This document shows, piece after piece, positions 5,726 to 57,925 of a stretch of 64,000 nucleotides of DNA. The stretch lies in assembly GCA_016927275.1 (NCBI GenBank), contig JAFGMW010000095.1:9247-73246 (forward strand), given 5' to 3'. The position numbers were made by a program, and so were the translations under genes. Each line of letters starts with the position of its first letter. The stretch's first letter is position 1. The notes below the pieces were generated by a model that saw only the letters and a list, made by a program, of their open reading frames with translations, searched no databases and was not told the origin of the DNA. This stretch comes from Pseudomonadota bacterium (GTDB lineage: Bacteria; UBA10199; 2-02-FULL-44-16; JAAZCA01).

Positions 5726-5955
5726 CCCGCGCCTTCCCCCTTTGAGTTTTGATACACCATCGGGCAGCAGATGACAATCGTCCGCAACGCGGCGGCGCAT
5801 CTGCCGGCAAACGGCCGCACGGCAAGGGTTGCAGGGCGGAGGCCCCGGGCGGCGGCGGGGGAAATTTGCCCTTGTTTTCGGAGGGGCCCCCGGATATACA
5901 GCTTCGCAATATTCAGATATCTTTACGTTTTTTTGTCTCAGGAGGAAGCGAAGAC

Positions 5956-7140: not shown

Positions 7141-7152
7141 AGGGGGGAAGAG

Positions 7153-8286: not shown

Positions 8287-8313
8287 AACGGCGGTGAACA
8301 ATAAGGAGGTCGT

Positions 8314-8739
8314 ATGAAGAAGACGGTGATATGCTTGGCAGTTCTCGCGTCCCTGCTCGCCCTCGCTCTGGCCGCCCATGCCCGCGCTGAGTGCAAGGTC
8401 GGCTCAAAGGCGCAGGTTCTCTGGAAGGGGAGCTGGTATCCGGCCTCGGTAAAGAAGATGAAGGGCGATCAGGCATACATCCACTATGACGGTTACAATA
8501 ACTCCTGGGACGAGTGGGTAAGCCCGGAGCGGATCAAGTGCACAGTCGCCGCCGCCGCGACGGCCAAACCCGCCTCGTTCTCGGAGGGCGACGCGGTATC
8601 GATCAAGTGGAAGGGCACATGGTACGATGCCCACGTGATCGGCGTGAATAAGAAAAAGGACTCCTGGAAGATCCACTACGACGGTTACAACAGCTCCTGG
8701 GACGAGTGGGTGGGTGCGGATCGCATCAGGACGAAGTGA
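8314..8739 (+). CDS. secreted protein with two tandem Tudor/Agenet-like (SH3-fold) repeats
   Basis: Signal peptide; two ~50-aa repeats (VLWKGSWYPASV...IHYDGYNNSWDEWVSPERI / IKWKGTWYDAHV...IHYDGYNSSWDEWVGADRI); RBS AAGGAGG upstream. Confidence 0.55.
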   Translation: MKKTVICLAVLASLLALALAAHARAECKVGSKAQVLWKGSWYPASVKKMKGDQAYIHYDGYNNSWDEWVSPERIKCTVAAAATAKPASFSEGDAVSIKWKGTWYDAHVIGVNKKKDSWKIHYDGYNSSWDEWVGADRIRTK

Positions 8740-10961: not shown

Positions 10962-11087
10962 ATTACCTCCCCGGAAGGAATATATTGCGTTAGCGGCGAA
11001 CCTGCTGAACTGATATTTCTTACTAATAGCGCACCCCCTGCAAGTCAACCTTTCAAAAAACGGGACGACAAAGAAATTGTTTCGCCG

Positions 11088-12293
11088 TTAAAGGCTGATG
11101 TCCCTGACCGCGTTCCAGAAGATCGAGCGCGCTGGGTTTCTCCCTGACCCGCCGGCCTGCGCGAGCTCGCCGTTCTCCAGGACCACGATGTCGTAGCCGC
11201 GGTACCGCATGCAGTAAGAGGTGTAATAGCCCATGAACGTCCCGTAATGACCGACAGCCCCGCTGTCGTCGTAGATGCCGAGGCCGTATGAGACCGGCCA
11301 GGTCTCTATCTGTCCGTCCTTCATCTGCAGCCTCTCCTGCTGGGCTTCGGGGCTGATGAGCTCCCCCTCCTCGAGCGCCTTCGCCCAGATGAGAATATCG
11401 CCTATGGTGGAGATCAATCCCCCGGCGGCCCAGGCCCAGCCGGGGTTCATCGACAGAGAGAGGTCTGCGACCTGCCCGTCAGCCATGAGATATCCGCGGG
11501 CGAACGGCTCGGGCATCGCCGGGCTGTCGGGAAGCGAGGTGTCGTGCATGCCGAGGGGCTGAAGCAAACGGCTATTGACCTCGCTCGCATAGGAGTTCCC
11601 CGTCACCTGCTCGATGATGATCCCCTGGAGGATGAAGTTGGTGTTGCAGTATTCAAACTGCGTGTCCGGCGCGTACGGGGCCGGGTCGACGCTCTCTGCG
11701 CTCCACCTGAGCATCTCCACCGGGTCGACCTGCTCCAGCGGGTGCCCGGCGAATATCGTTGCCCCCTCCTGCGTGGCCAGGGAGTCCACCATCCCGCTGC
11801 GCATCTCGAGGATGTTGCGCAGCGTCATCGTCTCGCCGTAAGGGATTGTGAAGCCTAGATGGCCGGGGGCGAACCATCGGGCGATTATCCCGTCTATCGT
11901 GTCGTCGAGGCTGAGCTTCCCCTCGTCGACCAGCTGGAGGATGATTGTGGCTGTGAAGGTCTTGGTGACGCTGGCGATGCGGAAGAAGCGGTCGATCGCC
12001 ATCGGCTCGCCCTCCGCCGCGCCGTTGCCCGAGGCGTCCGCAATCTGCTGAGGGAGTGCCGCTGAACCGCATGCGCCGTACCATGTGGACCCGTTCGGGG
12101 CGCGCACGCCCATCACCGCCCCCGGGATCTCGAGCTCCTCCACCGACCGGCAGAGCGACTGATCGAGCTTCAGCGCCATTATCTGGTTGAAGCCGGAGCC
12201 TTCCCCCAAGCGGCACGAAACAATGCCGGCCGCGAGAAGGCCGCCCAGGAGAACGCCGAGGACCCTTGAAATACACAGGCCGCGTCTCTTCAT
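11088..12293 (-). CDS. beta-lactamase-family serine hydrolase (class C/PBP-like) lipoprotein
   Basis: SxxK active-site motif (ASVTKTFTATIILQL); lipoprotein-type signal (LLAAGIVSC); start set at internal ATG. Confidence 0.75.
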   Translation of the reverse strand: MKRRGLCISRVLGVLLGGLLAAGIVSCRLGEGSGFNQIMALKLDQSLCRSVEELEIPGAVMGVRAPNGSTWYGACGSAALPQQIADASGNGAAEGEPMAIDRFFRIASVTKTFTATIILQLVDEGKLSLDDTIDGIIARWFAPGHLGFTIPYGETMTLRNILEMRSGMVDSLATQEGATIFAGHPLEQVDPVEMLRWSAESVDPAPYAPDTQFEYCNTNFILQGIIIEQVTGNSYASEVNSRLLQPLGMHDTSLPDSPAMPEPFARGYLMADGQVADLSLSMNPGWAWAAGGLISTIGDILIWAKALEEGELISPEAQQERLQMKDGQIETWPVSYGLGIYDDSGAVGHYGTFMGYYTSYCMRYRGYDIVVLENGELAQAGGSGRNPARSIFWNAVRDISL

Positions 12294-12341
12294 ATCGGTC
12301 CTCTTAGCACGAATCCCGGGCCGTTGAAAACCCAACCATGT

Positions 12342-12411
12342 CCCCCCGTCGGACAGAGCCCCTGTCAGACGGAGCAAAAAACCCCTGGAGCCCCTGTCAG
12401 ACGGAGCAAAA
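12342..12411. repeat. three tandem copies (~32-bp period) of motif CCCCTGTCAGACGGAGCAAAA upstream of the hydrolase gene
   Basis: Two exact 21-bp copies at 12359-12379 and 12391-12411 plus a degenerate copy at 12342-12359; same core recurs as an inverted repeat at 15892-15950. Confidence 0.7.
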
Positions 12412-12581
12412 TGAATCAGCTTCTAACATATGGATATTATTAATAAATAAGGTTCGTTCACTCTCCTCAAGGCCCTGATCGGAAGCTGCCACTGTAAAAT
12501 CCCTTGAAAATCAGGATTTTCGTACTAGCATCCCTTCCACAATTTACAGCCACCACGAAACGAGGTCGGCAGGGAGGAAAC

Positions 12582-12776
12582 ATGGCTAACAGGGATACAC
12601 GGAACACCGGCAGGGCCAGCACTTTTCTGAACGTATCCGACGACAAGGTGTACGAGGCGATCAGGAAGCGCGCCTATGAGCTGTATTGCAAGAGGGGCCA
12701 CGCGAACGGCAACGACATGAAGGACTGGCTCGAGGCCGAGAGGCAGGTCAAGAAGGAGATGAACCTCGCGCGCTAG
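12582..12776 (+). CDS. DUF2934-family small protein
   Basis: KVYEAIRKRAYELYCKRGHANGNDMKDWLEAERQV matches DUF2934; start at ATG with AGGGAGGA RBS rather than upstream table start. Confidence 0.55.
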   Translation: MANRDTRNTGRASTFLNVSDDKVYEAIRKRAYELYCKRGHANGNDMKDWLEAERQVKKEMNLAR

Positions 12777-12806
12777 ATCGCGGGCTCGTCGATTTGAAAT
12801 GTTCGA

Positions 12807-12839
12807 ACAGGGAGGGGGATGCCCCTCCCTGTTTTTTTT
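12807..12839 (+). terminator. rho-independent terminator after DUF2934 gene
   Basis: acagggaggggg-atg-cccctccctgt hairpin followed by T8. Confidence 0.7.
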
Positions 12840-12870
12840 GCGTGAGATCATCGCGCCGGGAGAAAAAGAC

Positions 12871-14829
12871 ATGCCCGTCACCTGGAAGAGGACAGAGCTG
12901 GACGAGATGGACTGCATGCTCCGCGAGGCGTGGGAGCACAACGCACTCCACATGAACGAGGTTTCGGGCAGACCGCTGGCCCACGCCGACGGCGACGACC
13001 TCGACGGCGACGGCAACCGGGGCGAGCGCATCACCGTCTCAGAGACGGTGGGATACAAGCTCTTCATGGAACTCCTGATGGCGACGATGGCCCGAACGAG
13101 CGGCGACGCCGAACTCGAAACCAGGGCGATGGAGAATTTCGACAGGGCGTGGGGATGGGCGGAGCGGAACATGCAGCGCAGCGCCCTCGCATCTGCGTAC
13201 GATCCGGTCGCCGGGGCGCTCGTCCCGATACCGGAAGGCAAGCGCGACTCGCTCCTCGCGTGGCGATACGTGCCGGGCGCCGGGGTGATCCACCACGCAA
13301 AGAATCGTTCCGACGGCATCTTCATAGACGGCCTCGACGGCGCCCCCGACGGCGACCTCTTCACCGCCGCCTCGCTGAGATTGGCGGCGGTGCTCTGGCC
13401 CGAACGACAGGATTACCTCGCGGCGGCGGAGGATATCGCGGTGGACATCCGCGCAAAATACGTGGCCGAGATCGGCGGCGAGCCGTATCTGTTGGGCGGC
13501 GACGAGTTCGTGCGGATATCCGGCATCAATCCCTCGTACTCGTTCGAGGCGGTCTACGACATGATGGGCGAGCTCGACCCCTCTCACGCGGCCGACTGGC
13601 AGAGGCTCAAGCAGAGCTCCATGAAGGCGGCGGTGGCCGGCGCCGACTCCACGCTATCGGCCGGCGGACCCTACATGTCGAACGGCAGGACGATAGGCTT
13701 CAGGGCGAGGCGGATAGAGGGCAGCTCGAACATGCCGCCGAACTGGCTCACATACGACGGCTCGGGGTTCGGCGACAACGAGTGGTTCGATCCCATCGAC
13801 TGGATATCGGGCTGGGACGGGCTGCGCACCCTCTGGATGAAGGCCGCCTACTTTCTCTACGACGGGAACGAGGCTGCGCGCAGGTATCTGCAGGACGACG
13901 CCGGAACGAAGGAGGACTTCGGTCCCTACGGGTTCCTGAAGAATCATCTCCTGAAACACGGCAGGCTGCCGGCCGGCTTCGGCATAGACGGCTCCTCCTC
14001 AGGGCCCGAGCTCTCGGTGATGAACCTCACCGAACCCAACGCCTTTTCGCTCGGCATCTATCTCGGCTTCTTCTACGCGGCCGGCGACATCGAGGCCGCA
14101 TCCAGGATGCTGGGCGGGCTCGTCGACTCGTATCACACGCAGCAGGTCCCCGGGCCGATCGGTATCGGCGAAGGGACCTTCGCCGAGGTCCGCACCGAGG
14201 GCGACCTGGACTACTTCGGGGACTGCTGGGCCTGGTTCGGCATGGCGATGGCCCGCGGGGCGGTCGAGGACCTCTTCGGCCTCTACAGGGAGTGGCGCGC
14301 GGAGAACGTCATGCCGCCCGCTTCTCCCGCCCCCCTACTCCCCTCTTATTTCGAGGTGAAGCCGGGCGGGATGGAATTCGCGCGCGGCATGGACCTGATG
14401 AAATCGAACATGTGGATCTCGGCGTTCGACGGCTGCTCGAGAAAGCTCTTCGGCGGCTACGCCTGCGAGGGCCGCGCGAAGGAGTGGTATCTCGGCGGCG
14501 TGGGGATAGGGCTGGGGCGAAACCCCGCGTGGGGCATCGAGAGGGAATACGACGGGCTCTTCATCGACGCCCCGGGCGCGCAGGGCCGCGTGAAGATCGA
14601 GCTGCACACCGACCGCCGCATCTACGTTCACGAGGCGTCGGCATCCAACGCCGCCTCCATGTACGTCCCGTTCACCGCCTTCAGGGAAGAGATCGATTAC
14701 GCGCCGAAGGGCAGAAGCTTCGATCCGAAGGTGGATCGCGTGGGCAAGATCCAGGTGATCGGCCTGGGAGCGACCGCCGACGGGGAGGTGGAGTTCGTCC
14801 TCAAGGAAATCCGCGCAGTGAAGAAATAG
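12871..14829 (+). CDS. hypothetical protein, possibly (alpha/alpha)6-barrel glycoside-hydrolase-like
   Basis: 653-aa ORF with good coding character, Trp/Gly/Asp-rich segments reminiscent of glycoside hydrolases; no signal peptide; start placed after the upstream terminator. Confidence 0.45.
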   Translation: MPVTWKRTELDEMDCMLREAWEHNALHMNEVSGRPLAHADGDDLDGDGNRGERITVSETVGYKLFMELLMATMARTSGDAELETRAMENFDRAWGWAERNMQRSALASAYDPVAGALVPIPEGKRDSLLAWRYVPGAGVIHHAKNRSDGIFIDGLDGAPDGDLFTAASLRLAAVLWPERQDYLAAAEDIAVDIRAKYVAEIGGEPYLLGGDEFVRISGINPSYSFEAVYDMMGELDPSHAADWQRLKQSSMKAAVAGADSTLSAGGPYMSNGRTIGFRARRIEGSSNMPPNWLTYDGSGFGDNEWFDPIDWISGWDGLRTLWMKAAYFLYDGNEAARRYLQDDAGTKEDFGPYGFLKNHLLKHGRLPAGFGIDGSSSGPELSVMNLTEPNAFSLGIYLGFFYAAGDIEAASRMLGGLVDSYHTQQVPGPIGIGEGTFAEVRTEGDLDYFGDCWAWFGMAMARGAVEDLFGLYREWRAENVMPPASPAPLLPSYFEVKPGGMEFARGMDLMKSNMWISAFDGCSRKLFGGYACEGRAKEWYLGGVGIGLGRNPAWGIEREYDGLFIDAPGAQGRVKIELHTDRRIYVHEASASNAASMYVPFTAFREEIDYAPKGRSFDPKVDRVGKIQVIGLGATADGEVEFVLKEIRAVKK

Positions 14830-14849
14830 ATCCCCGGCTATTCAAATTT

Positions 14850-15782
14850 TCACGGACAGTTCGGGCCGACGGTCATGTGTAACTTCGTGCCCGCGGAGCA
14901 GCGGCGCAGGCCGATCGAGTCGTCGTATGCGTAGCCGTACACGGTCTTCTTGCACGCGGTGTGGATGTGTTCCACGTAGCCGGTGCCCACCACGGGGCCC
15001 GCCCTGCACTCCTCGGCGCCTATTGGCGGCGTGGGGCAGCAGTAGATCACCGGAGGGTCCGTGTCCTCGCCAAGACCCAGCCCTCCGTATGTGGGATAGT
15101 TGAATTTCTTGCAGGGCGAATAGCAACCGATAACAGGGGCGCCGGCGTCCTCCTTCACCCTGAGGTCTTCGTCAGCATACTCCGGAAAGACCGTGCCCCC
15201 CTGCCCCGCGCTCAAGTCGTCGGCGGTCGGACACTCCGCAAGGCTCAGGGCCGCGCAGTCCACGGCAGAACAGGGCTGACCCTGGTCGTCCAGCGTGTCG
15301 CCGGTGACCGCCACGGTGAACGGGAATGTGTATCCGTCCACGGCGCTCGAGTTCCAGTAGGTGTCGATCATCCTGTCCCCCTGCGGGGTGAATCCGCACT
15401 GTGTCTCATCCGCCAGCGTGCAGCCCCATGTCGCCTCGATCTTGGAGTCCACAGGCGGCGGGCAACCGCCGGCCGGGCACGGGTCGGAGCTCTGGCCGAT
15501 CTCGCAGTTCTCGCCGCTCGCGTCGCAGCCCTTCTTGGGCCAGAACCTGGTGGAGGCCTGGCCAGCCTCCGGGATATCGTAATCGTGATATGCGCCCGGC
15601 TCGATCTTCACAACATCGGGGGTCGAGGCCGGCATGTTCTGCTGCTGTATCCAGATGGCGTAGGCGCAGCTGTTGGTGACCCTCAGCCGCTTCGTCTGGG
15701 TGTCGTCGCCGCCCCCTCCGCCCCCCCCTCCGCACCCGCAGAGAAGAGCCACAGCCAGCGCCAGGCACAGCTTCTTATTCAT
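14850..15782 (-). CDS. thaumatin-like (PR-5 family) lipoprotein
   Basis: Lipobox LAVALLCGC; RVTNSCAYAIWI..FWPKKGCDASGENC..16 Cys pattern resembling thaumatin/osmotin fold; start at internal ATG (MNKK). Confidence 0.6.
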   Translation of the reverse strand: MNKKLCLALAVALLCGCGGGGGGGGDDTQTKRLRVTNSCAYAIWIQQQNMPASTPDVVKIEPGAYHDYDIPEAGQASTRFWPKKGCDASGENCEIGQSSDPCPAGGCPPPVDSKIEATWGCTLADETQCGFTPQGDRMIDTYWNSSAVDGYTFPFTVAVTGDTLDDQGQPCSAVDCAALSLAECPTADDLSAGQGGTVFPEYADEDLRVKEDAGAPVIGCYSPCKKFNYPTYGGLGLGEDTDPPVIYCCPTPPIGAEECRAGPVVGTGYVEHIHTACKKTVYGYAYDDSIGLRRCSAGTKLHMTVGPNCP

Positions 15783-15891
15783 AGATTCCCCCTCGTCGTT
15801 CCCGCGCTTATCGCATTGCGGGGGGTCCCAGGTCAAACGGATAGAGTCAACGGGCGATCCTGCCCGAGCCGACACAGACAAGCGTCAAAGC

Positions 15892-15950
15892 GTCAGACGG
15901 AGCAAAGTTAACTCATTGATCTTATTGTTTTTTATCTTGCTCCGTCTGAC
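15892..15950. promoter_or_regulatory. inverted repeat GTCAGACGGAGCAA-N31(AT-rich)-TTGCTCCGTCTGAC in divergent promoter region
   Basis: Perfect 14-bp inverted half-sites flanking an AT-rich spacer between divergent lipoprotein genes; followed by tandem AGCTCGTGTGAC x2. Confidence 0.55.
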
Positions 15951-16034
15951 AGCTCGTGTGACAGCTCGTGTCCATGAACCGAATTGACAACCCTCTCGAT
16001 CAGGAACATTATCCCCCACTAAAAGGAGGTGCGT

Positions 16035-17141
16035 ATGCGCACTTTTGGCAGGGGTATCGTGGCAATGGGTGCTGCATTGGTTCTGCTGTTCGGTCTGGCC
16101 GCATGCGGCGGAGGTGGCGGCACGCCTACGCCTACTGAGCCGACCGCGACCTACGGCGGGGCCGCGACCGCGGGGGACATCTTCGTGATCAAGATGGACT
16201 ATCCGGCAGTCGGCAAGGCGACCATCACGCGCTCTGAGACCGACGGCACGCTCGTGGGGTCGAAGGAGATGAGCTACACGGCCAACGGCACCCGCTATAC
16301 ATTCACCGACGAGGACAGCAATTCGTTCGAGGCTCTCATGGTCGCGGACACCATGCTCACCATGTTTCTGCCGGCCACTGACGAGAAGGACATCATCGTT
16401 GCGGTCATAGTGGATCCGGACATGACTTCGACCGCAGAGGCGGCCGCCATCCTGAAGAACCACGACTACATCCTCACGCAGTTCAGGCACGACGAGAAGG
16501 GCGTGAAATGGGTCTGGTCGAACGTGGACGCGGACGGCGTGGTTACGGGCCATAAAGCCAATGAAGGGAATACCCTGCCCTACGACCTCGATGACGTTGA
16601 CACGACCAATAACTTCGACCCCGGCATGGACGTGGACAACCTCGTGTACAACGCGGAGACGAGCGGCTTCACGCTCACGGTGGGCGACGAGATATGGACA
16701 TACTATTTCACGGAGTCCGGGCTGGGCGTCATCGACAAGGGGCCGGACAAGGGCATCCGCTTCAACATGATCAAGCCCGCGACATATGATCCGACCGGCA
16801 TGGTTGCAGTAGGAGACATCTACGACACGCTGTTTTACGGCCGCCGGTCCGAGACTGAGGAGGGAACGACGCAGGGAACGATAACGGTCACGGCTGTCAC
16901 GGCGAATTCCTTCACGGTCGACGTGGACAACGGCAGGGATCCTGTGATGACGGGCATCGTGATCACGGCCGACCTGAGCGATCTGTGGCGCGGCTTCTAC
17001 CGGCTGCCCGCCACCATAGATGCGGTGCCCCAGAACGCGGTGGTCCAGCTCGTCGGCTCGGACGCCATGATCTTTGCAGGCAAGGCCCCGGCCGCCAATC
17101 CGTGGCAATACGAATACGGCATCGGCGTAAAGCGGAAGTAA
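16035..17141 (+). CDS. hypothetical lipoprotein
   Basis: ATG with AAGGAGG RBS 5 nt upstream; lipobox LLFGLAAC followed by Gly/Thr/Pro linker. Confidence 0.6.
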   Translation: MRTFGRGIVAMGAALVLLFGLAACGGGGGTPTPTEPTATYGGAATAGDIFVIKMDYPAVGKATITRSETDGTLVGSKEMSYTANGTRYTFTDEDSNSFEALMVADTMLTMFLPATDEKDIIVAVIVDPDMTSTAEAAAILKNHDYILTQFRHDEKGVKWVWSNVDADGVVTGHKANEGNTLPYDLDDVDTTNNFDPGMDVDNLVYNAETSGFTLTVGDEIWTYYFTESGLGVIDKGPDKGIRFNMIKPATYDPTGMVAVGDIYDTLFYGRRSETEEGTTQGTITVTAVTANSFTVDVDNGRDPVMTGIVITADLSDLWRGFYRLPATIDAVPQNAVVQLVGSDAMIFAGKAPAANPWQYEYGIGVKRK

Positions 17142-17187
17142 GACCAACTAATCATTTTCAAAGGCGGAACCCGGAAAAGGGGGTAAT

Positions 17188-17619
17188 ATGAAGAAGCTTT
17201 TGGCGATGCTGGTGGCAGCGGCGTTCGCTCTGCCTGTGCTCGCGCAGGCGGAGAAGTGCAAAGAGCCGGAGAAGACGGATCTGAAGGCCGGCATGAAGGT
17301 CGTGGCGCAGTGGCAGGGCGACAGCTGGTGGCTGGCGAAGATCGACTCGATCGGCAAAAACGGCCTCATCGACGTGACCTACTCCGACAACACCAGGGGA
17401 AGGAACAAAAGGCAGGATCAGGTCGCGCGCTACATCTACTCCGACACCAGCGCCCCGCCCTGCTTCAAGGAGGGCGACAAGGTCGTGGCGCAGTGGAAGG
17501 GCGACAACTGGTGGAAGGCCCGCATCGACAGGATAGAGGGCGACAAGGCGAAGATCACCTACACCGACGGGGAGAAGGGCACGCGCAAGCTCACGGAGAT
17601 GGTCCGCGACCCGTGGTGA
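17188..17619 (+). CDS. secreted protein with two tandem Tudor/Agenet-like repeats (paralogue of 8314-8739)
   Basis: Signal peptide; repeats VVAQWQGDSWWLAKIDSI...DVTYSD / VVAQWKGDNWWKARIDRI...KITYTD. Confidence 0.55.
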   Translation: MKKLLAMLVAAAFALPVLAQAEKCKEPEKTDLKAGMKVVAQWQGDSWWLAKIDSIGKNGLIDVTYSDNTRGRNKRQDQVARYIYSDTSAPPCFKEGDKVVAQWKGDNWWKARIDRIEGDKAKITYTDGEKGTRKLTEMVRDPW

Positions 17620-17634
17620 CGGGAAAATATGCAC

Positions 17635-17668
17635 AAAAAAACCCTGCCGATGCGGCAGGGTTTTTTTC
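17635..17668 (+). terminator. rho-independent terminator
   Basis: aaaaaaaccctgccg-atg-cggcagggtttttttc. Confidence 0.75.
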
Positions 17669-17818
17669 ACGACGATCCAAATCAGGCTGTCGGATAATAT
17701 TTTGACACATCGGGTAAAGTTTAACCCAGCCAGACTCGGCCGATGCCTGTCGAAACTATATTTTCTTTATAAATCAATGTGATAAAAGCTAACGCGCACT
17801 TGCAACCCGCTCTGCAGA

Positions 17819-17834
17819 TGGCATGCTATTTGCT
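17819..17834 (+). promoter_or_regulatory. candidate sigma-54 (-24/-12) promoter
   Basis: TGGCATGCTATTTGCT matches TGGCAC-N5-TTGCW consensus; ~60 nt upstream of the delta-60 lipoprotein start in an AT-rich intergenic region. Confidence 0.45.
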
Positions 17835-17892
17835 CATCATTGTTGTTGTGCTGTAACTCTTGTTTGGGTAGTCATCTCCCGTGAGGGAAAGG

Positions 17893-19590
17893 ATGAAAAA
17901 GTGTCTTCTACATAGAGCGATGATTTTGATGGCCGTAGTGCCGCTTGCATACGTACTGGCGGCCGGATGCGGTTCAGGCAGCCTCGATTATTTCGGAGAC
18001 GGCAGCGGCTTGGAGCAACCCCCTGAGGGGCCCTCGCCGCCTGTCCCGCCACGTACCCCTGTGGTGCTCTCGCTCTCTGCGACTCCGTGGACTCTCGAGA
18101 ACAGCATAGAGTGGAGGGTGGTATCCGGCGACGCGGACTCCTTCAATCTCGCATGGCAAGTGGACGAGGAGGCCAGCGCCTCAGTGATTGCTTTGTCCGA
18201 GGCCGCCGGAGAGATCGAGGACGTGTCCTCTCCTTTTGTGCATGACGGCCTGTCCAACAACGGCGTGGAATACTGCTACAGGATCGTCCCCGTCTTTGAC
18301 GGCGAAAAGGGCGACACCTCCGACGAGGTCTGCGCCATGCCCGACACCGTAGGAATTCCGGACGACTCCTTCGGGGCCGAAGGAGTGATCACGGACGATC
18401 TGGGCGGCGGCCTCGATGAAATCGGCTACGCGGTCGGGCACGACGCCTCAGGCAGGGCGCTGGTCGCAGGCTATGAGTTCAACGCGGCCCTGGGTTCGAA
18501 GATGGCGCTGTGGCGCTTTCTTTCCGACGGATCGCCCGATGCCGGCTTCGGCGCAGGAGGCCTTGCCAGCTACGACGTAGGCAAGCCCGACAGGATCTGG
18601 GACGGCAATGCCCTTGCGATAGACGCGAGCGGCAGGGTGATCGTGCCCGGGTTCATCAACGACGCTCCCCTTGTGAACACCGCGACGATCTGGAGATACG
18701 GCCCCGACGGGGCGCTGGACGCAACTTTCGACGGCGACGGAATCTATCGGTTTGCCAATCCGCACGAGGGCGGGAGGGGAAATTACGACTGGATGTACGA
18801 CGTCAAGGTCGATCCGAGCGGGAGGATAGTGATCGCGGGCATCAGCTTCTTCGCAGCCGACTGGCTGCTGCACATGAGCATCTGGAGGCTGCTCGACGAC
18901 GGCACGGTCGATCCCGCGTTCAACGGCGGCGTGCCCGTGGATTACATAAATCCCGGCAGCGGGAGCGACTACGGCTTTGCGCTTGAGCTCGATGCGGATG
19001 GAAGGATAGTGATCGGCGGTTCCAGCATGGAAGGAGGCTGGCCCAGGGGAAGGGTTGCGCTCTGGAGATACCTCGACGACGGCACGCCGGACCCCTCGTT
19101 CAACGGCGGCACACCGATCATAATGACCAGGGTCGCCGGGGACACGGACGACGCGATCAGGGCGCTTGTGATCGATGCGGAGGAAAGGATCCTCGCAGCG
19201 GGGTCGAGGGACAACGCAAGTGGCGGCAAGGACCTCTGCATCTGGAGATTCCTCGAAGACGGGTCGCTCGATCCGGCCTTCGGCGCCGCCGGGGAGATCA
19301 GGTATGACGCAGGCGCAGCAAACGAGGACATCGCCTATGGGATCGCAGAGGACGTGCACGGCAGGATAGTGGTCGGCGGAGAGATGGGCGAAAAGGCGGT
19401 GGTCCACCGCTACCTCGAAGATGGGTCGCTGGACCCGGCCTTCGGAGAGGGCGGAGTCTATGAGTATGATAAAAGCGGCGACGACGCTGCCGGCGGCATT
19501 ACGATAGATTCCCGCGGCAGGATCCTTACCACGGGCCACATCAAGGGCCCGGGCGGCAATCTCGACATGGCGGTCTGGAGACTCAAGTAG
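17893..19590 (+). CDS. delta-60-type repeat domain lipoprotein
   Basis: Lipobox VLAAGC; >=7 repeats of ~55-60 aa built around [LIV]WR[FYL]xxDGSxDxxF(G/N)GG(G) (ALWRFLSDGSPDAGFGAGG, IWRYGPDGALDATFDGDG, IWRLLDDGTVDPAFNGG, LWRYLDDGTPDPSFNGG, IWRFLEDGSLDPAFGAAG, HRYLEDGSLDPAFGEGG). Confidence 0.65.
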   Translation: MKKCLLHRAMILMAVVPLAYVLAAGCGSGSLDYFGDGSGLEQPPEGPSPPVPPRTPVVLSLSATPWTLENSIEWRVVSGDADSFNLAWQVDEEASASVIALSEAAGEIEDVSSPFVHDGLSNNGVEYCYRIVPVFDGEKGDTSDEVCAMPDTVGIPDDSFGAEGVITDDLGGGLDEIGYAVGHDASGRALVAGYEFNAALGSKMALWRFLSDGSPDAGFGAGGLASYDVGKPDRIWDGNALAIDASGRVIVPGFINDAPLVNTATIWRYGPDGALDATFDGDGIYRFANPHEGGRGNYDWMYDVKVDPSGRIVIAGISFFAADWLLHMSIWRLLDDGTVDPAFNGGVPVDYINPGSGSDYGFALELDADGRIVIGGSSMEGGWPRGRVALWRYLDDGTPDPSFNGGTPIIMTRVAGDTDDAIRALVIDAEERILAAGSRDNASGGKDLCIWRFLEDGSLDPAFGAAGEIRYDAGAANEDIAYGIAEDVHGRIVVGGEMGEKAVVHRYLEDGSLDPAFGEGGVYEYDKSGDDAAGGITIDSRGRILTTGHIKGPGGNLDMAVWRLK

Positions 19591-19727
19591 CGCAGCTCAA
19601 ATCCGTCTCAGAACGCGAACCCTATCTCGGTCACGAGGCAGTTGAAGTGGAGCCAGCCGGCGGTTCGGCGCTTTCTTTCCCTGCGATTGTCGGCTATAGA
19701 TGCTGCATCAATAAAAAGGGGGTCATT

Positions 19728-20651
19728 ATGAAGCGTTTCGTTTCCATCATCGCGATCATCTTTGTGGCTGCGCTCTCAGGCGGATGCGGAGGCGGGGGCG
19801 AAGGGCCGGCCCCGGGGGACACGACCACAATCTCCGGAACTCTCGTTGAGGGCGCCGTGGACCCGGTGGGATCGGCCTCGGCAAAAGTCGCCCAGGCAAA
19901 GGCAGCGGGCGACCCCCTCGTCGGATACCAGCTCTACTGCGTCACGTTCTCCACCCCGCCGCTTGGCGCAGCCGGGACCTCGGGCGCTGACGGCTCTGTG
20001 ACCCTCACGATCGACGCCGCGAGCGCCACTTTCGGGTGCTTCATCCTCGATCCGGCCGGAGCCAGCGTCGCCACGCTCATATTCGTAAACGACGACGCCA
20101 GCTCGTTCGGCCAGACGGTCACGGCCAGCGGGACGGTGGGCCTCGGGCAGATCAACGTGCAGCTCGACACCGGCGCGGCCCGGGTGACCGTGCCGAGCGG
20201 CGTCACGATCAGCCCCACGCCCGCTAGCGCGGAGTGCCCGGAAGGGACGTGGCTGACCGATGAATTCGCACAGGCCCCGAGCTGCCCCATAGGACAAAAG
20301 ACGAAGAGCACGGTCTGGATGGTGAAGAAGCCTGACGGCAAATACGAAGCGAGCTTCACGACCTACAATGTCGGCATCTACGAGACATGCAGCATCGGGA
20401 GCAAGAGCGGCATGGCGGTCGAGACAGCGGGCAACGTGGCGAGCTTCTCCTTCCCGTTCTCCTTCGAGTCAGACGACCCGTGCTACGACGAGAAGATAGC
20501 GACGCTCATAGTCACGACGAACGAGGAGTGCACACAGGGCGAGGCATCCATTGCGGTCGACAACTGCGGTTCCTGCGATCCGGACACCATATGCAACGAC
20601 TGCGGCTCGGAGACCTGCGTAGTCACGGGCATACAAGTCACGAGAGAGTGA
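19728..20651 (+). CDS. hypothetical Cys-rich lipoprotein
   Basis: Lipobox AALSGGC with poly-Gly linker; Cys-rich C-terminal region; RBS upstream of ATG. Confidence 0.55.
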   Translation: MKRFVSIIAIIFVAALSGGCGGGGEGPAPGDTTTISGTLVEGAVDPVGSASAKVAQAKAAGDPLVGYQLYCVTFSTPPLGAAGTSGADGSVTLTIDAASATFGCFILDPAGASVATLIFVNDDASSFGQTVTASGTVGLGQINVQLDTGAARVTVPSGVTISPTPASAECPEGTWLTDEFAQAPSCPIGQKTKSTVWMVKKPDGKYEASFTTYNVGIYETCSIGSKSGMAVETAGNVASFSFPFSFESDDPCYDEKIATLIVTTNEECTQGEASIAVDNCGSCDPDTICNDCGSETCVVTGIQVTRE

Positions 20652-20973
20652 CACAGGCTGCCGCGCAGTTGCCGCCCATCCGCAACATATTTATAACAAA
20701 GGGGTTTTTCCAGGGGTCGCCCCGCTGCCGGCGGTTCGGGGTGATCATGGCATTTTTTTGACACTCCTGTTGGCCCTTTTGAGAGTTTTCTGAATTTTAA
20801 AAAAGGTGTCAAAACTCAGGCTGTAAAAGGGTCAAATTTGCCTCATGCATGCGGATTTCGTCACTTTTTTATCCATTAATTCCAATTAGTTACCCAGCCA
20901 ACATTTTTCGAGGTGCTTGGTCTGATAAATGCACGGATAAAGGGTTGGAACCAGATTTTCCACGGGGGGGACT

Positions 20974-23900
20974 ATGAGGAGCGGAGTTCGCCATGTCGTT
21001 CCGGCGATATTTGCTCTTGTATTGCTGGTTCAGTCGATATCGGCGGCGCCGCCCGCTTTTGTCATAGCCGAGCCTGAAGCGCACGACTACGGGAGCGTCA
21101 GGGTGGGCGACTTGTCGGAGGCCGTGCGCATAACGGTCACAAACACCGGCGAAAGATCTGCGCGGATAAATTCAATTAGGTTTGCGGAGCGCCTCAACTT
21201 CTCGATCGTTGAGGAGAGCTCCACCTGCCTGGTCGGACTCAAACTGCCGGGCGGAGGCTCCACCTGCGTCATAGACATCGTATTCGGCCCCGTCGAGTCA
21301 GGCGACCTTGCCGACACGTTGACCGTGGGCACCAACCGCGGCAGGCCGAAGATCTCCTTGAGCGGAAAGGGCCTGGCCCCCGACGCGCTCATCGAGCCGG
21401 CGTCCAGGGATTTTCTCGATCAGCCGATCGGCAAGCCGAGCGCGGCGCAGGCGTTCAAGGTCACCAACACAGGGGACGCCGATTTGCATGTCTCGGCAAT
21501 CGACATCGCCGGACCCGATTCCTCGGATTTTGCGCTGATGAGCGAAACGTGCGTGGGTGAAGCGATCGCGCCCCTCGACAGCTGCAATTTTGAAATCGTC
21601 TTCACGCCAAGAGGTCTCGGTCCGCGGAGCGCGCAGGCCGAGATATCGGATGACGCGGTCTCCGGGAGTCCGCAGATAGTCCCCTTGAGCGGCAACGGCA
21701 TAGCGGACGTGAGCCTGGCCCCTTCGGCGCACGACTTCGGAGACCGGCCGATCGGCGAGAGGAGCCCGGCGCATGAGTTCGTCGTGACCAACGGCGGCGC
21801 CGCGGACGTGAACATATCCCTGGTTGCCGTCTCCGGCGACCACCCGGCCGACTTCGCAATACAGGCGGACGGCTGCACCGGCGAGAGCCTCGCGCCGGAA
21901 GAGACCTGCAGCATCATAGCGGACTTTTCACCGGCCGGCGTGGGCGGAAGAAGCGCCCTGCTCGAGGTCCATCACGATTCCGCGGCCGCAAGCCCCCTGG
22001 TCTCGGCGCTCCTCGGCACCGGCACTTCGGGCGACGTGAGCGTCACCCCCGCAGCGGTGAGCTTTCCCGATCAGCTCATTCTGACCGGCAGCGCCCCTGT
22101 CACAGTGACCGTGGAAAATACGGGGGCCGTCGATCTCACCGTAGGCGCCCTGGCGATCGGAGGGGTCGACGCTTCGGAGTTCGGCCTGGAGAGCGACCTG
22201 TGCTCCGGCCAAACGCTCGGGCCGGCGGTCACCTGCACCTTTGATGCGGTATTCGCGCCCGCGACCGTCGGCGTCAAGGATGCGCGCGTCGACATCCCCA
22301 ACGACGTGATCGTCGTCACCGTCGGATTGACAGGCGAAGGCGTGGCCCCAGACGCTGCGGCGGAGCCGGGCGAGCTCGCTTTCGGCGATCAGCCTGTGGG
22401 CAGGCCGAGCCCGCTGCTCACCGTGACGGTGACCAACACCGGCGGCGCCGACCTGAACGTCTCGTCCGTATCGATAGCCGGCGCGGACGCGGCGGACTTC
22501 GCGATATCCAGAAACACATGCCTGGGCGCTCCCGTGGCGCCGGCCGGCACGTGCACCTTCGCGGTCGGATTCACGCCGGGCAGCCTCGGGGAAAAGGAGG
22601 CGCAGGCCGAGGTCGCGGACGACGCGATATCCGGCAGCCCCCAGATCGTATCGCTCAGCGGCAACGGGATTTCGGACGTGAATCTCAATCCAGCGGACTA
22701 TGATTTCGGCGAACAGCTCGTCGGGACAAGCGACACCAGGACCTTCGTGCTCACGAACGTCGGCGGGGCGGACCTGACGATAGCGACCATAGTCCCGGCC
22801 GGGCCCTCTGCCGCCGACTATACGATCCCGGATGCGGGCGACGGCTGTTCCGGCGCAACGGTCGCGCAGGACGACACATGCTCGTTCGACGTCGAGTTCT
22901 CGCCCGGCGGCGTGGGCGGCAGGCAGGCGCATGTGGAGATAACAAGCGACGCCGCATCGGGCAGCCCCGATACTCTGCCCCTCTTCGGGACCGGCATAGC
23001 GTCCGACGTGGCGATCTTCCCCATGAACATCGATTTCGGCGATCAGCTCGTCGGCAGCGAAAGCGATCCGCAGGAGATCACGGCGACCAATACCGGCGAG
23101 GCGGTTCTCAACGTCGACACAGTCATGCTGGCCGGTGCCGATGCGGGCGATTTCGAAATCTCCATTGACGGCTGCACAGGCAGCAGCGTCATGCCTTCGC
23201 TGTCCTGCTCGGTCACCGTGGTCTTCAGACCTTTACTCGTGGGCGACAAGACAGCGCAGGTCGAGATATACGACGACGCGATATCCGGAAGCCCTCAGAC
23301 CGTGCCGCTCGGCGGCAAGGGCGTGCCTCCCATGCCTTCCGTGAGGCTCGTGCCTGTGAGCGTCAACTTCGGCAGCCAGGAGGTCGGCACCACAGGCCCG
23401 CCGCAGTTGATAACCCTCACCAACAGCGGAATGGCGCCGCTCAACATAACCGCGATCACGGCCAGCGGCGAATTCAGCCAGACCAACGACTGCCCCGCAG
23501 CGCTGGCGGCCGGAGCCGACTGCACGATAAGCGCCTCGTTCAGCCCGAGCAGCGAAGGCGCCAAGGCCGGCGCAATCGAGGTGACAGACGATGCGGCCGA
23601 CAGCCCTCAGAGGGTCGCGCTCAGCGGCACGGGCAGCGCGGCGCCGGTGTCCGCAAACCTCTCGATCACAAAGGCGGTGGCGCCCGACACGGCGCAGTGC
23701 AGGATCGACGTGACCTGCACCATCGTGGTGACGAACACCGGGAGCAGCGCTGCGGAAAACGTCGTCGTCATGGATACGATGCCGGGCGGACTGGCATTTG
23801 TTTCGGCATCGGCAAGCCAAGGGGCGTGCGAATCCGGCGAAGCGTCATGCAGCCTCGGAAGGCTCAATGCAAGCGACAGCGCCTCAGTCGCCGTCGTCGT

Positions 23901-24162
23901 GAGGCCGACCGCTGCCGGCACGATCACGAACACGGCGACCGCCTCCAGCGATTCGATATCTCAACCGGTGAGCGCCTCGGCGGTCCTCACCGTGAACGAC
24001 GTAGACTGCGGCGGCGACGGAGGCGGCGGAGGATGCTCCCTTGCGCGTGAGACGCCTCGACCGCGAGACAGGGTCCTCTCTGGAATCCTGGCATCGATGG
24101 CCGCGATCGGCGCGCTTCTCGCTCTGCACTTCGCACGCGCGAGAGGCCGCTCAAACCCGTAA
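20974..24162 (+). CDS. large cell-surface protein with ~9 tandem ASH/choice-of-anchor-D Ig-like domains, a DUF11-type domain and a C-terminal Cys-TM-basic anchor
   Basis: Signal peptide; ~95-aa repeats (DFG..PIG..S....VTNTGxADLxVSxV.I.G.DxxDF......C.G..L.P...C.F.V.F.P...G...A...I.DDAxSGSPQxVxLSGxG); DUF11-like segment (LSITKAVAPD...TNTATASSD); C-terminus CGGDGGGGGCSLARETPRPRDRVLSGILASMAAIGALLALHFARARGRSNP. Confidence 0.7.
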   Translation: MRSGVRHVVPAIFALVLLVQSISAAPPAFVIAEPEAHDYGSVRVGDLSEAVRITVTNTGERSARINSIRFAERLNFSIVEESSTCLVGLKLPGGGSTCVIDIVFGPVESGDLADTLTVGTNRGRPKISLSGKGLAPDALIEPASRDFLDQPIGKPSAAQAFKVTNTGDADLHVSAIDIAGPDSSDFALMSETCVGEAIAPLDSCNFEIVFTPRGLGPRSAQAEISDDAVSGSPQIVPLSGNGIADVSLAPSAHDFGDRPIGERSPAHEFVVTNGGAADVNISLVAVSGDHPADFAIQADGCTGESLAPEETCSIIADFSPAGVGGRSALLEVHHDSAAASPLVSALLGTGTSGDVSVTPAAVSFPDQLILTGSAPVTVTVENTGAVDLTVGALAIGGVDASEFGLESDLCSGQTLGPAVTCTFDAVFAPATVGVKDARVDIPNDVIVVTVGLTGEGVAPDAAAEPGELAFGDQPVGRPSPLLTVTVTNTGGADLNVSSVSIAGADAADFAISRNTCLGAPVAPAGTCTFAVGFTPGSLGEKEAQAEVADDAISGSPQIVSLSGNGISDVNLNPADYDFGEQLVGTSDTRTFVLTNVGGADLTIATIVPAGPSAADYTIPDAGDGCSGATVAQDDTCSFDVEFSPGGVGGRQAHVEITSDAASGSPDTLPLFGTGIASDVAIFPMNIDFGDQLVGSESDPQEITATNTGEAVLNVDTVMLAGADAGDFEISIDGCTGSSVMPSLSCSVTVVFRPLLVGDKTAQVEIYDDAISGSPQTVPLGGKGVPPMPSVRLVPVSVNFGSQEVGTTGPPQLITLTNSGMAPLNITAITASGEFSQTNDCPAALAAGADCTISASFSPSSEGAKAGAIEVTDDAADSPQRVALSGTGSAAPVSANLSITKAVAPDTAQCRIDVTCTIVVTNTGSSAAENVVVMDTMPGGLAFVSASASQGACESGEASCSLGRLNASDSASVAVVVRPTAAGTITNTATASSDSISQPVSASAVLTVNDVDCGGDGGGGGCSLARETPRPRDRVLSGILASMAAIGALLALHFARARGRSNP

Positions 24163-24460
24163 AACCCACCTGGGACCCTGATCCTCGCCTCTGCCCCGGC
24201 GTCAGAGAAATTGACGACAACCAGGTGCCTCTTCCGGCCCTTGTCCCAGCACCATGCGATCAGGTTGTTGCAGGTCTCGTTTCCTGGCCAGGCGTCGAAA
24301 CCGAATGAGCCGATCGCGCCCCACTCCTCCTTCGGCACCGTCGCGAGCGTGACCGCGCGCCCGTGTTTCGCAAAGAGCTCCTCGAGCCAGACCCATGTGC
24401 TGATCTCGTAGATGATCGGTGCCTTCGGCCACGCGGCCATATCTTACCCGCTGTTTCCTT

Positions 24461-27187
<2,727 letters not shown>

Positions 27188-57753: not shown

Positions 57754-57925
57754 GGCCGCGCTTGTAGCAGAAAGGCCTCACCCCTGGCAACCGGCTTTCG
57801 GGAAAATCGCGGGCCAGGGGGATATTCCTGCTTGATAACCGGACCTGAAAAAAGTTAGCAACTGCGCTCCGCTTCCTCCGATAACAAAGGCCCCGGGGCA
57901 AAGACCCCTCACAGAGGACTGCTCA

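Follow-up and report, generated by a model that had tools for sequence, protein, structure and literature searches.

The gene considered here lies in a 64,000-nucleotide window (the whole stretch of DNA that was analysed) of an uncultured Proteobacteria MAG. Its open reading frame (ORF) is intact, has the boundaries of exactly 20974..24162 on the forward strand and is real: over the body of the gene GC3 is 0.82, while GC at the two remaining codon positions is 0.53-0.64, a clear coding periodicity. NCBI has the identical protein, as does an independent Logan assembly. Over the last 56 codons the codon-position GC is flat (0.73/0.62/0.70), so that coding of the C-terminal tail is neither favoured nor contradicted by this measure. 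Upstream of the Shine-Dalgarno-like run (Table 1) lies an AT-rich intergenic region of 322 nt, in which no sigma-70-like promoter was called, and scans of the surroundings of the gene for Rfam families, promoters and terminators gave nothing notable. The product, MBN1283417.1, has already been named a choice-of-anchor D protein by NCBI and is a fairly ordinary secreted repeat protein. The word "giant", used in an earlier note on this DNA, was overstated for 1062 residues, as the same window holds an ORF of 2663 aa. No orthologue above 38% identity was found, the best non-self match being 34-38% identical.

Table 1. Features of the MBN1283417.1 gene and of its downstream junction, with positions counted from the first letter of the window
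Feature	Residues	Position	Strand	Evidence or remark
Shine-Dalgarno-like purine-rich run GGGGGGGA, just 5' of the ATG		20964..20971	+	direct sequence reading
Gene for MBN1283417.1	1062 aa + stop	20974..24162	+	GenBank, choice-of-anchor D domain-containing protein
Predicted Sec signal peptide, MRSGVRHVVPAIFALVLLVQSISA/AP	1-24	20974..21045	+	translation reading; hydrophobic segment at residues ~8-19
ASH repeat 1, most divergent	30-118	21061..21327	+	71.7 bits; Cys pair C85/C98
ASH repeat 2	127-228	21352..21657	+	129.7 bits; Cys pair C193/C204
ASH repeat 3	235-336	21676..21981	+	127.4 bits; Cys pair C301/C312
ASH repeat 4	345-444	22006..22305	+	112.0 bits; Cys pair C410/C421
ASH repeat 5	449-551	22318..22626	+	125.9 bits; Cys pair C516/C527
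ASH repeat 6	558-660	22645..22953	+	115.1 bits; Cys pair C625/C636
ASH repeat 7	667-769	22972..23280	+	131.7 bits; Cys pair C734/C745
ASH repeat 8	776-874	23299..23595	+	99.3 bits; Cys pair C840/C850
DUF11/CLIPPER domain	896-997	23659..23964	+	PF01345, TIGR01451
Gly/Cys signature DCGGDGGGGGCSLA, with C1012 and C1021	1011-1024	24004..24045	+	direct reading
Spacer RETPRPRDR, charged, Pro-rich	1025-1033	24046..24072	+	direct reading; coil in low-confidence model
Hydrophobic transmembrane helix VLSGILASMAAIGALLALHFA (21 residues)	1034-1054	24073..24135	+	Kyte-Doolittle; low-pLDDT model
Basic cytoplasmic end RARGRSNP; TAA stop at 24160-24162	1055-1062	24136..24162	+	direct reading
Alpha-amylase-like pseudogene remnant		24171..24440	-	profile of six intact homologues; tblastn; GC3

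The hydrophobic N-terminus ends in ISA/A and carries no lipobox Cys, the predicted cleavage site following from the A-x-A rule rather than from a computation. Behind it, NF012200 matches the protein with 448.1 bits (E 6.2e-137, cut-off 45 bits) in 8 stretches, the best of which (775-876) corresponds to repeat 8, and the ASH-type Pfam families PF22544 (HYDIN/VesB/CFA65-like Ig, E 2e-52) and PF15780 (ASH, E 2e-38) agree. Members of the NF012200 family are expected to be secreted, with a signal peptide at one end and some kind of anchoring tail at the other, and both are found, as the N-terminus just described and as a C-terminal helix with an Arg cluster. The boundaries and bit scores of the repeats in Table 1 come from an HMM derived from the protein's own repeats, independent of NF012200, which delimited eight units between residues 30 and 874. 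The ASH/choice-of-anchor-D type proposed in the earlier note therefore stands, with eight units rather than about nine and a period of ~100-108 instead of ~95 aa; the supposed "ninth" unit corresponds to the DUF11 domain. All cysteines of the protein (22/22) occur in local pairs. Assignment to the secreted multi-Ig repeat proteins of the choice-of-anchor D family is supported.

The DUF11-like domain that had been noticed after the repeats is borne out by PF01345 (78.5 bits, E 6.3e-22, gathering cut-off 24.6). DUF11 is now described as the "CLIPPER" isopeptide domain of fibrillar adhesins (PMC12617251). In a weak alignment to PDB 9IFR (E 0.08), K900 falls on K715 and N986 on N806, and D934 lies within the conserved xDTxP strand, which puts K900, D934 and N986 at the positions of the isopeptide triad; judged from these aligned residues, an isopeptide bond between K900 and N986 probably locks the domain. 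The domain also contains four Cys (909, 915, 952, 959).

Direct reading confirms the three parts noticed earlier at the C-terminus, namely a Gly/Cys motif (GGGGGCSLA, residues 1016-1024), a hydrophobic helix and an Arg-rich end. The second Cys is separated from the helix by 12 residues with 4 Arg, 1 Glu and 1 Asp, and the top 15-residue Kyte-Doolittle window of the helix scores 2.23. A single-sequence AlphaFold model of residues 880-1062, usable for secondary structure only (mean pLDDT 55), gives coil and then a helix at 1034-1056 with low pLDDT. As a description, the earlier note was thus partly confirmed: ORF, ASH type, DUF11 and tail hold, while repeat count, period and size were corrected.

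MYXO-CTERM and JDVT-CTERM form a class of three-part, Cys-containing signals, of which lineage-specific forms escape general HMMs (Haft, bioRxiv 10.1101/2023.06.07.544157), and cleavage of MYXO-CTERM by MrtX has been shown by experiment (PMC11980579). Among 18,950 NCBIfam models, JDVT-CTERM (NF033191) was the sole sorting-signal model reported for the tail, with 10.6-11.3 bits (E 0.24-0.41) against a cut-off of 27, a score not significant alone; the alignment places the DCGGDGGGGGCSLA region on model positions 1-23. None of ten shuffled versions of the signature segment matched any Cys-type C-terminal model, indicating that residue order, and not composition alone, underlies the weak match. 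Aligned with the tails of P0066 and P0029, two choice-of-anchor D homologues that score 42-44 bits for JDVT-CTERM, the tail agrees in the GGCSL core, in an Asp with a Pro at the second position ahead of it, and in the helix that follows. GGCSL itself recurs in P0066, and GGGCSL in a tail from GCA_013328915.1 (L087).

With matches admitted up to E <= 10, none of MYXO-CTERM (TIGR03901, cut-off 20 bits), PEP-CTERM (TIGR02595) and GlyGly-CTERM (TIGR03501) was reported for the tail, and the tail has no Pro-Glu-Pro motif and a Gly run that stops 13 residues before the helix. Tails of control homologues, presented as 60-aa fragments, were detected by the same models, PEP-CTERM and GlyGly-CTERM included, with MYXO-CTERM at 28-36 bits for P0018 and P0104. 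A search among 5.8 billion proteins for near-copies of the tail gave only 2 candidates that shared words with it, none of which scored; near-copies are therefore absent from that collection, from which divergent copies would escape. When the DUF11 domain and the tail were compared with 1.84 billion representatives, giant multi-DUF11 proteins dominated and no match had its best stretch reach the tail. The suggestion that the tail is a MYXO-CTERM-type sorting signal thus keeps its three-part Cys layout and loses the curated models, every one of which failed, one of the two outcomes that the earlier note had named as counting against it. Its link to exosortases named the wrong enzyme class, because a PEP motif is absent and Cys-type signals are cut by CPBP-family myxosortases (PMC11980579). 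The earlier interpretation consequently survives in part, as regards the secreted repeat protein and the layout of the tail, and not in its model matches or its enzyme.

Nor did the surroundings yield the cognate sorting protease or the further tails that the earlier note had proposed looking for. The 64-kb window has no gene for a CPBP, rhomboid or exosortase protein, its only polytopic membrane proteins being LPG-synthase-like, bestrophin-like and a Na/H exchanger, and no second ORF in it ends in a Gly/Cys-helix-Arg tail; with L083 added, ~72 kb of the genome are covered, in which the tail is still the only one of its kind and CPBP genes are still absent. An MrtJ-type gene lies near 17 of 36 JDVT-CTERM proteins examined, directly adjacent in 16 of these 17, and JDVT-CTERM proteins usually occur once per genome, in beta- and gammaproteobacterial genera (Haft, bioRxiv 10.1101/2023.06.07.544157). 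Beside the present gene no MrtJ (CPBP) was found, the downstream neighbours being the amylase-like pseudogene and then a GH63-like gene. The two true JDVT-CTERM homologues examined have no adjoining CPBP gene either, so that adjacency is not obligatory and their neighbourhoods were unusable as a positive control for it; that of P0066 (TlpA/DUF4266/DUF3570) is as described by Haft. For MYXO-CTERM systems, which are housekeeping, the enzyme gene is not expected beside the substrate genes; a genome with such a system is expected to encode from several to dozens of the tailed proteins and a myxosortase (core model NF040914).

The alpha-amylase-like remnant matches only positions 1-50 and 403-443 of 495 in a profile of six intact homologues. 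In other genomes the intact gene follows the GH63-like gene; the remnant has an internal deletion, its tblastn alignments end at codon 90, and GC3 in its frame is 0.84. Its cut 3' end, 8 nt from the stop of the surface-protein gene, marks a rearrangement junction. An origin of the tail from the antisense strand of this remnant was rejected, as homology to the intact genes ends at nt 24171, outside the ORF. The GH63-like neighbour was also tried as a route to syntenic relatives among GTDB representatives and turned out to occur in a wide range of phyla, at 60-70% identity; the only nearby choice-of-anchor D match in that search (L018) is an unrelated thaumatin-like protein. A relative whose PLP enzyme is at least 90% identical (L082) shares three syntenic genes only and lacks the surface-protein block. 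Named Obg relatives of the MAG, 59-72% identical, are exclusively uncultured MAGs labelled 'Deltaproteobacteria bacterium', 'Pseudomonadota bacterium' or 'bacterium'. Its closest relatives by Obg, P0278 and P0281, match at 83% and 75% identity.

The reading that we prefer, and to which we give about an even chance, is that of a secreted, stalk-like cell-envelope protein whose tail is a Cys-type signal cut by a myxosortase-type CPBP protease encoded elsewhere. The Sec signal peptide would be removed, and the eight choice-of-anchor D Ig-like domains would form a rod, each probably pinned by a disulfide, followed by one membrane-proximal CLIPPER domain. The tail, with its GGGCSL motif, transmembrane helix and Arg cluster, may initially hold the protein in the inner membrane and would then most likely be handled like MYXO-CTERM/JDVT-CTERM signals: Cys1021, and possibly Cys1012 too, would be modified, probably with lipid, the helix would be removed by a CPBP-family (Rce1-like) intramembrane protease of the myxosortase type encoded elsewhere in the genome, and the protein would be displayed on the cell surface. 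The order of the domains, the anatomy of the tail and its weak, order-dependent likeness to JDVT-CTERM are shown; we infer this processing, the lipidation and the enzyme, as well as any adhesin role of the protein. [quoted passage not shown] Against it count the failure of every curated model, the DR in place of DP, the second Cys, the charged spacer, a window with neither a sorting enzyme nor another such tail, and the lack of a scoring match to the tail among 5.8 billion proteins.

The same tail may instead be a plain stop-transfer anchor. The product would then remain in the inner membrane as a type I protein whose Ig rod lies in the periplasm; the Gly stretch would serve only as a flexible linker, and C1012 and C1021 would form a small disulfide loop. 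Such an anchor would suit a tail that passes no sorting-signal model, in a window holding neither a sorting enzyme nor a second tail of the kind, and in a protein whose every other Cys lies in a local pair, as fits disulfides; the charged spacer would moreover keep the Cys away from the membrane. The GGGCSL motif and the order-dependent match to a Cys-type signal speak against it, and choice-of-anchor D proteins typically carry processed anchors. An Ig domain is about 4 nm long, from which it may be estimated that nine Ig-like domains in line would exceed the width of the periplasm. We consider a simple anchor of this type rather unlikely, though a serious contender.

The junction 8 nt past the stop raises the further idea that a rearrangement removed mrtJ and orphaned a JDVT-CTERM signal, leaving a drifted tail (DP to DR, with one extra residue) that is at most a membrane anchor. 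JDVT-CTERM is indeed the only signal model matched, mrtJ often adjoins the usually single-copy JDVT-CTERM genes (16/36 adjacent; Haft, bioRxiv 10.1101/2023.06.07.544157), the near-invariant DP is lost, and the amylase-like pseudogene is truncated directly past the stop. Yet the ORF is intact, no CPBP remnant lies between 24163 and 24170, nothing indicates what was deleted, and the two true JDVT-CTERM homologues also lack an adjacent CPBP gene; the Deltaproteobacteria label of named Obg relatives likewise differs from Haft's beta- and gammaproteobacterial genera. Decay of this sort is improbable. Recognition by another machine, whether exosortase/PEP-CTERM, rhombosortase/GlyGly-CTERM or an undescribed enzyme, seems more improbable still: the Gly run ahead of the helix loosely recalls GlyGly-CTERM and the repeats are of the HYDIN/VesB type, VesB being a rhombosortase substrate (weak match to PDB 4LK4), but the PEP motif is absent, 13 residues part the Gly run from the helix, both models pick up control tails and not this one, and neither a rhomboid nor an exosortase gene lies within the window.

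Processing by a myxosortase-type protease, the preferred reading, has a more specific and more doubtful form, which we put forward tentatively and regard as somewhat unlikely: the tail may be the first example of an unmodelled, lineage-specific Cys-type signal of an uncultured deltaproteobacteria-like lineage, which would have its own CPBP myxosortase and share the signal among several surface proteins. The layout in question is GGGCS-L, a charged or polar spacer of ~12 residues, a helix and an Arg cluster. In GCA_013328915.1, one 12-kb contig encodes three proteins with sub-threshold Cys tails, one of them reading GGGCSL, 10 residues, a helix and RKR, which shows that a genome can have several copies of a lineage-specific form for which there is no model; if the specific form is true, these three tails would be a parallel or related case. 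If the tail works as a Cys-type signal, myxosortase-like (CPBP) sorting would reach a further uncultured lineage, and one more seed sequence would become available for the lineage-specific models that Haft calls needed. Otherwise the protein is a routine case among repeat surface proteins, annotated before, and its chief practical use is as an example of how closely a tail can look right by eye yet fail the curated models.

Compared with known systems, the protein resembles choice-of-anchor D proteins in its eight tandem repeats, each with a conserved Cys pair, in its signal peptide and in its anchor-type tail; it differs in having no close orthologue and a single terminal DUF11 domain, an arrangement that few of the best 120 homologues have. 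The C-terminal anchors of these homologues are themselves diverse, comprising MYXO-CTERM, JDVT-CTERM, IPTL-like, LPXTG-like and T9SS types. With CLIPPER proteins (PF01345; PDB 9IFR) it shares the aligned isopeptide Lys and Asn and the placement of the domain in the stalk of a protein with signal peptide and anchor. However, it has one membrane-proximal copy instead of a long tandem array, and its four-Cys pattern departs from the CTTC motif of 9IFR.

For the tail, the likeness to the JDVT-CTERM/MrtJ system (NF033191/NF033192) lies in the GGCSL core, the Pro and Asp ~10 residues after the Cys, the helix and the Arg cluster. Here, however, the near-invariant DP (~9-10 residues after the Cys) reads DR, with the Asp at +11, one residue further, and there are two Cys (1012 and 1021) where JDVT-CTERM has one. 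The MYXO-CTERM system (MrtX/MrtC/MrtP) offers the same three-part C-terminal tail with a Cys, often two, in a Gly-rich motif. It has been described only from Myxococcota and Bradymonadales; the named Obg relatives of this MAG are uncultured genomes labelled as above. Between the Cys of the present tail and its helix there are 12 residues, which include a Pro-rich spacer whose strong charge is unlike that of the known Cys-type signals, JDVT-CTERM and MYXO-CTERM alike.

The open reading frame at 20974-24162 (+), placed exactly in the earlier note, encodes a product of 1062 aa. GC content in the body of the gene is 0.82 at the third codon position vs 0.53-0.64 at the other positions, and the identical protein is present in NCBI (MBN1283417.1, on a 75.8-kb contig) and in a second, independent source, the Logan assembly of run SRR13394437. 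Therefore, the gene is real and had been annotated before. No non-self protein more than 38% identical was found among 5.8 billion proteins, so that no orthologue serves for judging conservation of the tail. Judged by Obg, the genome lies near relatives at 83% and 75% identity; the relatives that carry names are all MAGs of uncultured organisms, labelled Deltaproteobacteria, Pseudomonadota or 'bacterium'. In the AT-rich spacer 5' of the gene (20757-20835), an inverted repeat (TTGGCCCTTTT / AAAAGGGTCAA, arms 44 nt apart) and a symmetry (TTTTGACAC...GTGTCAAAA) could be observed, which may form a candidate regulator binding site; neither Rfam families nor sigma-70-like promoters were called there.

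The domain architecture is secure. NF012200 (NCBIfam, choice-of-anchor D) matches eight stretches with 448 bits, and the equivalent Pfam matches are HYDIN/VesB/CFA65-like Ig, ASH, Cep192_D4 and TMEM131-like. With a profile derived from its own repeats, eight units of ~100-108 aa were marked out in the protein, at a period of ~108 aa. Thus, the choice-of-anchor D/ASH type proposed earlier was borne out, whereas the count of about nine ~95-aa repeats was not, the DUF11 domain having been taken as the ninth. Repeats 2-8 share 32-50% pairwise identity, except repeats 4 and 8 (27%); the first repeat has diverged further. The expected DUF11 domain (PF01345) follows at residues 896-997 (E 6e-22). DUF11 was lately renamed CLIPPER, a domain typical of fibrillar-adhesin stalks, whose crystal structure (PDB 9IFR) revealed a CnaA-like fold containing an isopeptide bond between Lys and Asn (PMC12617251). 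This structure is the sole PDB match; in the weak alignment (E 0.08), K900 and N986 correspond to the bonded K715 and N806, and D934 falls within the conserved DTxP strand. The protein is a choice-of-anchor D/CLIPPER stalk protein, which NCBI already names choice-of-anchor D domain-containing protein, and from its domain types we infer an adhesin role.

The gene closes a block of genes for secreted proteins that share its orientation, and lipoproteins are abundant across the wider region. From 8838 to 20651 runs a series of predicted lipoproteins in which Cys is followed by a poly-Gly linker (e.g. LAACGGGGG). Tudor-knot, Agenet and chromo-like domains, present in two small proteins of the window, are better known in eukaryotic chromatin readers. 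A metagenome contig of 180 kb (L082) encodes a type III PLP decarboxylase with at least 90% identity to that of the window; apart from this, the two have little gene order in common. The giant ORF at the window end (2663 aa, GC3 0.87) is followed by proteins of 241 aa and >533 aa, the latter ending at the locus edge; none of the three has a Pfam match on record.

Features of the protein, its surroundings and the compared loci
Feature	Position	Strand	Remark
Deoxyhypusine-synthase-like gene paired with type III PLP decarboxylase	5749-8286	+	L082 8804-11134
Small proteins, tandem Tudor-knot / Agenet / chromo-like domains	8305-8739; 17158-17619	+	N-terminal signal peptide
FG-GAP/Big_5 predicted lipoprotein	8838-11048	-	
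Predicted lipoprotein	14850-15881	-	no family match
Predicted lipoprotein	16029-17141	+	no family match
DUF5122 / delta-60-repeat propeller lipoprotein	17881-19590	+	predicted; same block
Cys-rich lipoprotein	19647-20651	+	predicted; no assigned family; same block
Alpha-amylase-like remnant	24171-24440	-	
GH63-like gene	24461-27187	-	adjoins remnant
TatD-type hydrolase fused to radical SAM, single ORF	38703-40091	-	complete TatD, residues 6-258; radical SAM, 278-440
Giant ORF	57839-64000, past window end	+	L083 1783-9774
Repeat 1	residues 30-118		self-profile
Repeat 2	residues 127-228		self-profile
Repeat 3	residues 235-336		self-profile
Repeat 4	residues 345-444		self-profile
Repeat 5	residues 449-551		self-profile
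Repeat 6	residues 558-660		self-profile
Repeat 7	residues 667-769		self-profile
Repeat 8	residues 776-874		self-profile
Gly/Cys motif	tail part 1		DCGGDGGGGGCSLA
Charged Pro-rich spacer	tail part 2		RETPRPRDR
Hydrophobic stretch, 21 residues	tail part 3		VLSGILASMAAIGALLALHFA
Basic end	tail part 4		RARGRSNP
Cys-tail proteins of L087	2-1369; 1691-7117; 10360-12099		

The last 52 residues join the four tail parts in this order, in agreement with the Gly/Cys motif, hydrophobic stretch and Arg-rich end described before. A single-sequence AlphaFold model of the C-terminal part passes from a beta-sandwich through coil into a helix at 1034-1056 (low confidence, pLDDT 55), and among the ORFs in the window this one alone ends in a hydrophobic helix and basic residues. 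When the tail was scanned alone (E <= 10), the only sorting-signal model matched was JDVT-CTERM (NF033191; 10.6-11.3 bits, cut-off 27, E 0.24-0.41), over GGGGGCSLARETPRPRDRVLSGILA; MYXO-CTERM, PEP-CTERM, GlyGly-CTERM and LPXTG gave no match at this threshold. The models work at this fragment length, since control tails of choice-of-anchor D homologues were detected by JDVT-CTERM (family members P0066 and P0029, 42-44 bits) and MYXO-CTERM (P0018 and P0104, 28-36 bits). Shuffling the 23-residue signature segment ten times, with helix and basic end left intact, yielded no Cys-type match (0/10), indicating that the weak match reflects residue order and not composition alone. The likeness to MYXO-CTERM suggested in the earlier note is one of layout with the Cys-type class, the MYXO-CTERM model itself being unmatched. 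Among 5.8 billion proteins, none had enough 5-residue words in common with the tail to score, and a search of DUF11 plus tail against 1.84 billion representatives was dominated by multi-DUF11 giants, uninformative on the tail.

A Cys-type sorting function of the tail is plausible, if unvalidated. Every such signal has its partner protease, an intramembrane enzyme of the CPBP family (Rce1-like; Haft, bioRxiv 10.1101/2023.06.07.544157), so that the exosortase invoked earlier is the wrong enzyme class for a Cys-type tail. MYXO-CTERM, known from Myxococcota and Bradymonadales, occurs in multiple copies and is served by a housekeeping enzyme encoded at an unlinked locus; JDVT-CTERM is typically single-copy (Haft). 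Experimental proof exists that MrtX cuts MYXO-CTERM and that the Cys residues are required (PMC11980579). The likeliest fate of the tail, with about an even chance, is that a CPBP protease encoded elsewhere processes it in MYXO-CTERM/JDVT-CTERM style, with lipid on Cys1021 and surface display. Among the ~42 genes in the window (frame-aware ORF selection), just three encode polytopic membrane proteins, one LPG-synthase-like, one bestrophin-like and one a Na/H exchanger that carries an EIIA domain. No CPBP, rhomboid, exosortase or sortase emerged when the other ORFs were scanned with Pfam, the window ends being covered by precomputed hits. The main rival, a stop-transfer anchor left unprocessed with C1012-C1021 as one more disulfide, appears rather unlikely; the local pairing of all 22 cysteines (two per repeat, four in DUF11, two in the tail) would be consistent with it, and the order-dependent JDVT-CTERM match would speak against it.

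Directly 3', the minus strand carries a remnant of an alpha-amylase-like gene; in numerous genomes, across many phyla, such a gene comes immediately after the GH63-like one. Covering profile positions 1-50 and 403-443 of 495, with ~350 codons deleted internally and the last ~52 gone, it is, judging from its sequence, a pseudogene. The tail has no homology to this gene, ruling out an antisense by-product of it. Since the amylase-like homology stops at nt 24171, eight nucleotides past the stop codon, a rearrangement junction lies at the 3' end. It is unlikely that the tail is an orphaned JDVT-CTERM-type signal that is drifting after losing the protease gene beside it to this rearrangement; mrtJ adjoins the substrate gene in 16/36 cases (Haft). 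Other sorting machines, their models unmatched, are very unlikely.

General HMMs miss lineage-specific forms of these signals (Haft). The 12-kb contig L087 (GCA_013328915.1, JAANMU010002469.1) encodes three proteins with Cys-type three-part tails, including the homologue P0014. Their motifs are SGCSM..., SGCAL... and GGGCSL..., one reading GGGCSL, 10 residues, helix and RKR; one scores 10.1 bits (JDVT-CTERM), another 19.5 (MYXO-CTERM, cut-off 20) and the third nothing. Multi-copy Cys tails below curated cut-offs do exist, and those of L087 probably represent a Cys-type sorting signal that is specific to a lineage and has no model yet. In locus L085 (Logan SRR25567592), genes for a TlpA-like thioredoxin, DUF4266 and DUF3570 come after the true JDVT-CTERM protein P0066, matching the sporadic JDVT-CTERM neighbourhood in Haft; no CPBP gene adjoins P0066 there. 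By eye, the tail studied here has GGCSL in common with true JDVT-CTERM tails, as well as a Pro at position -2 from an Asp and the helix after it. It departs from them by one extra residue, by DR where DP is near-invariant, by an additional Cys and by a spacer that contains four Arg.
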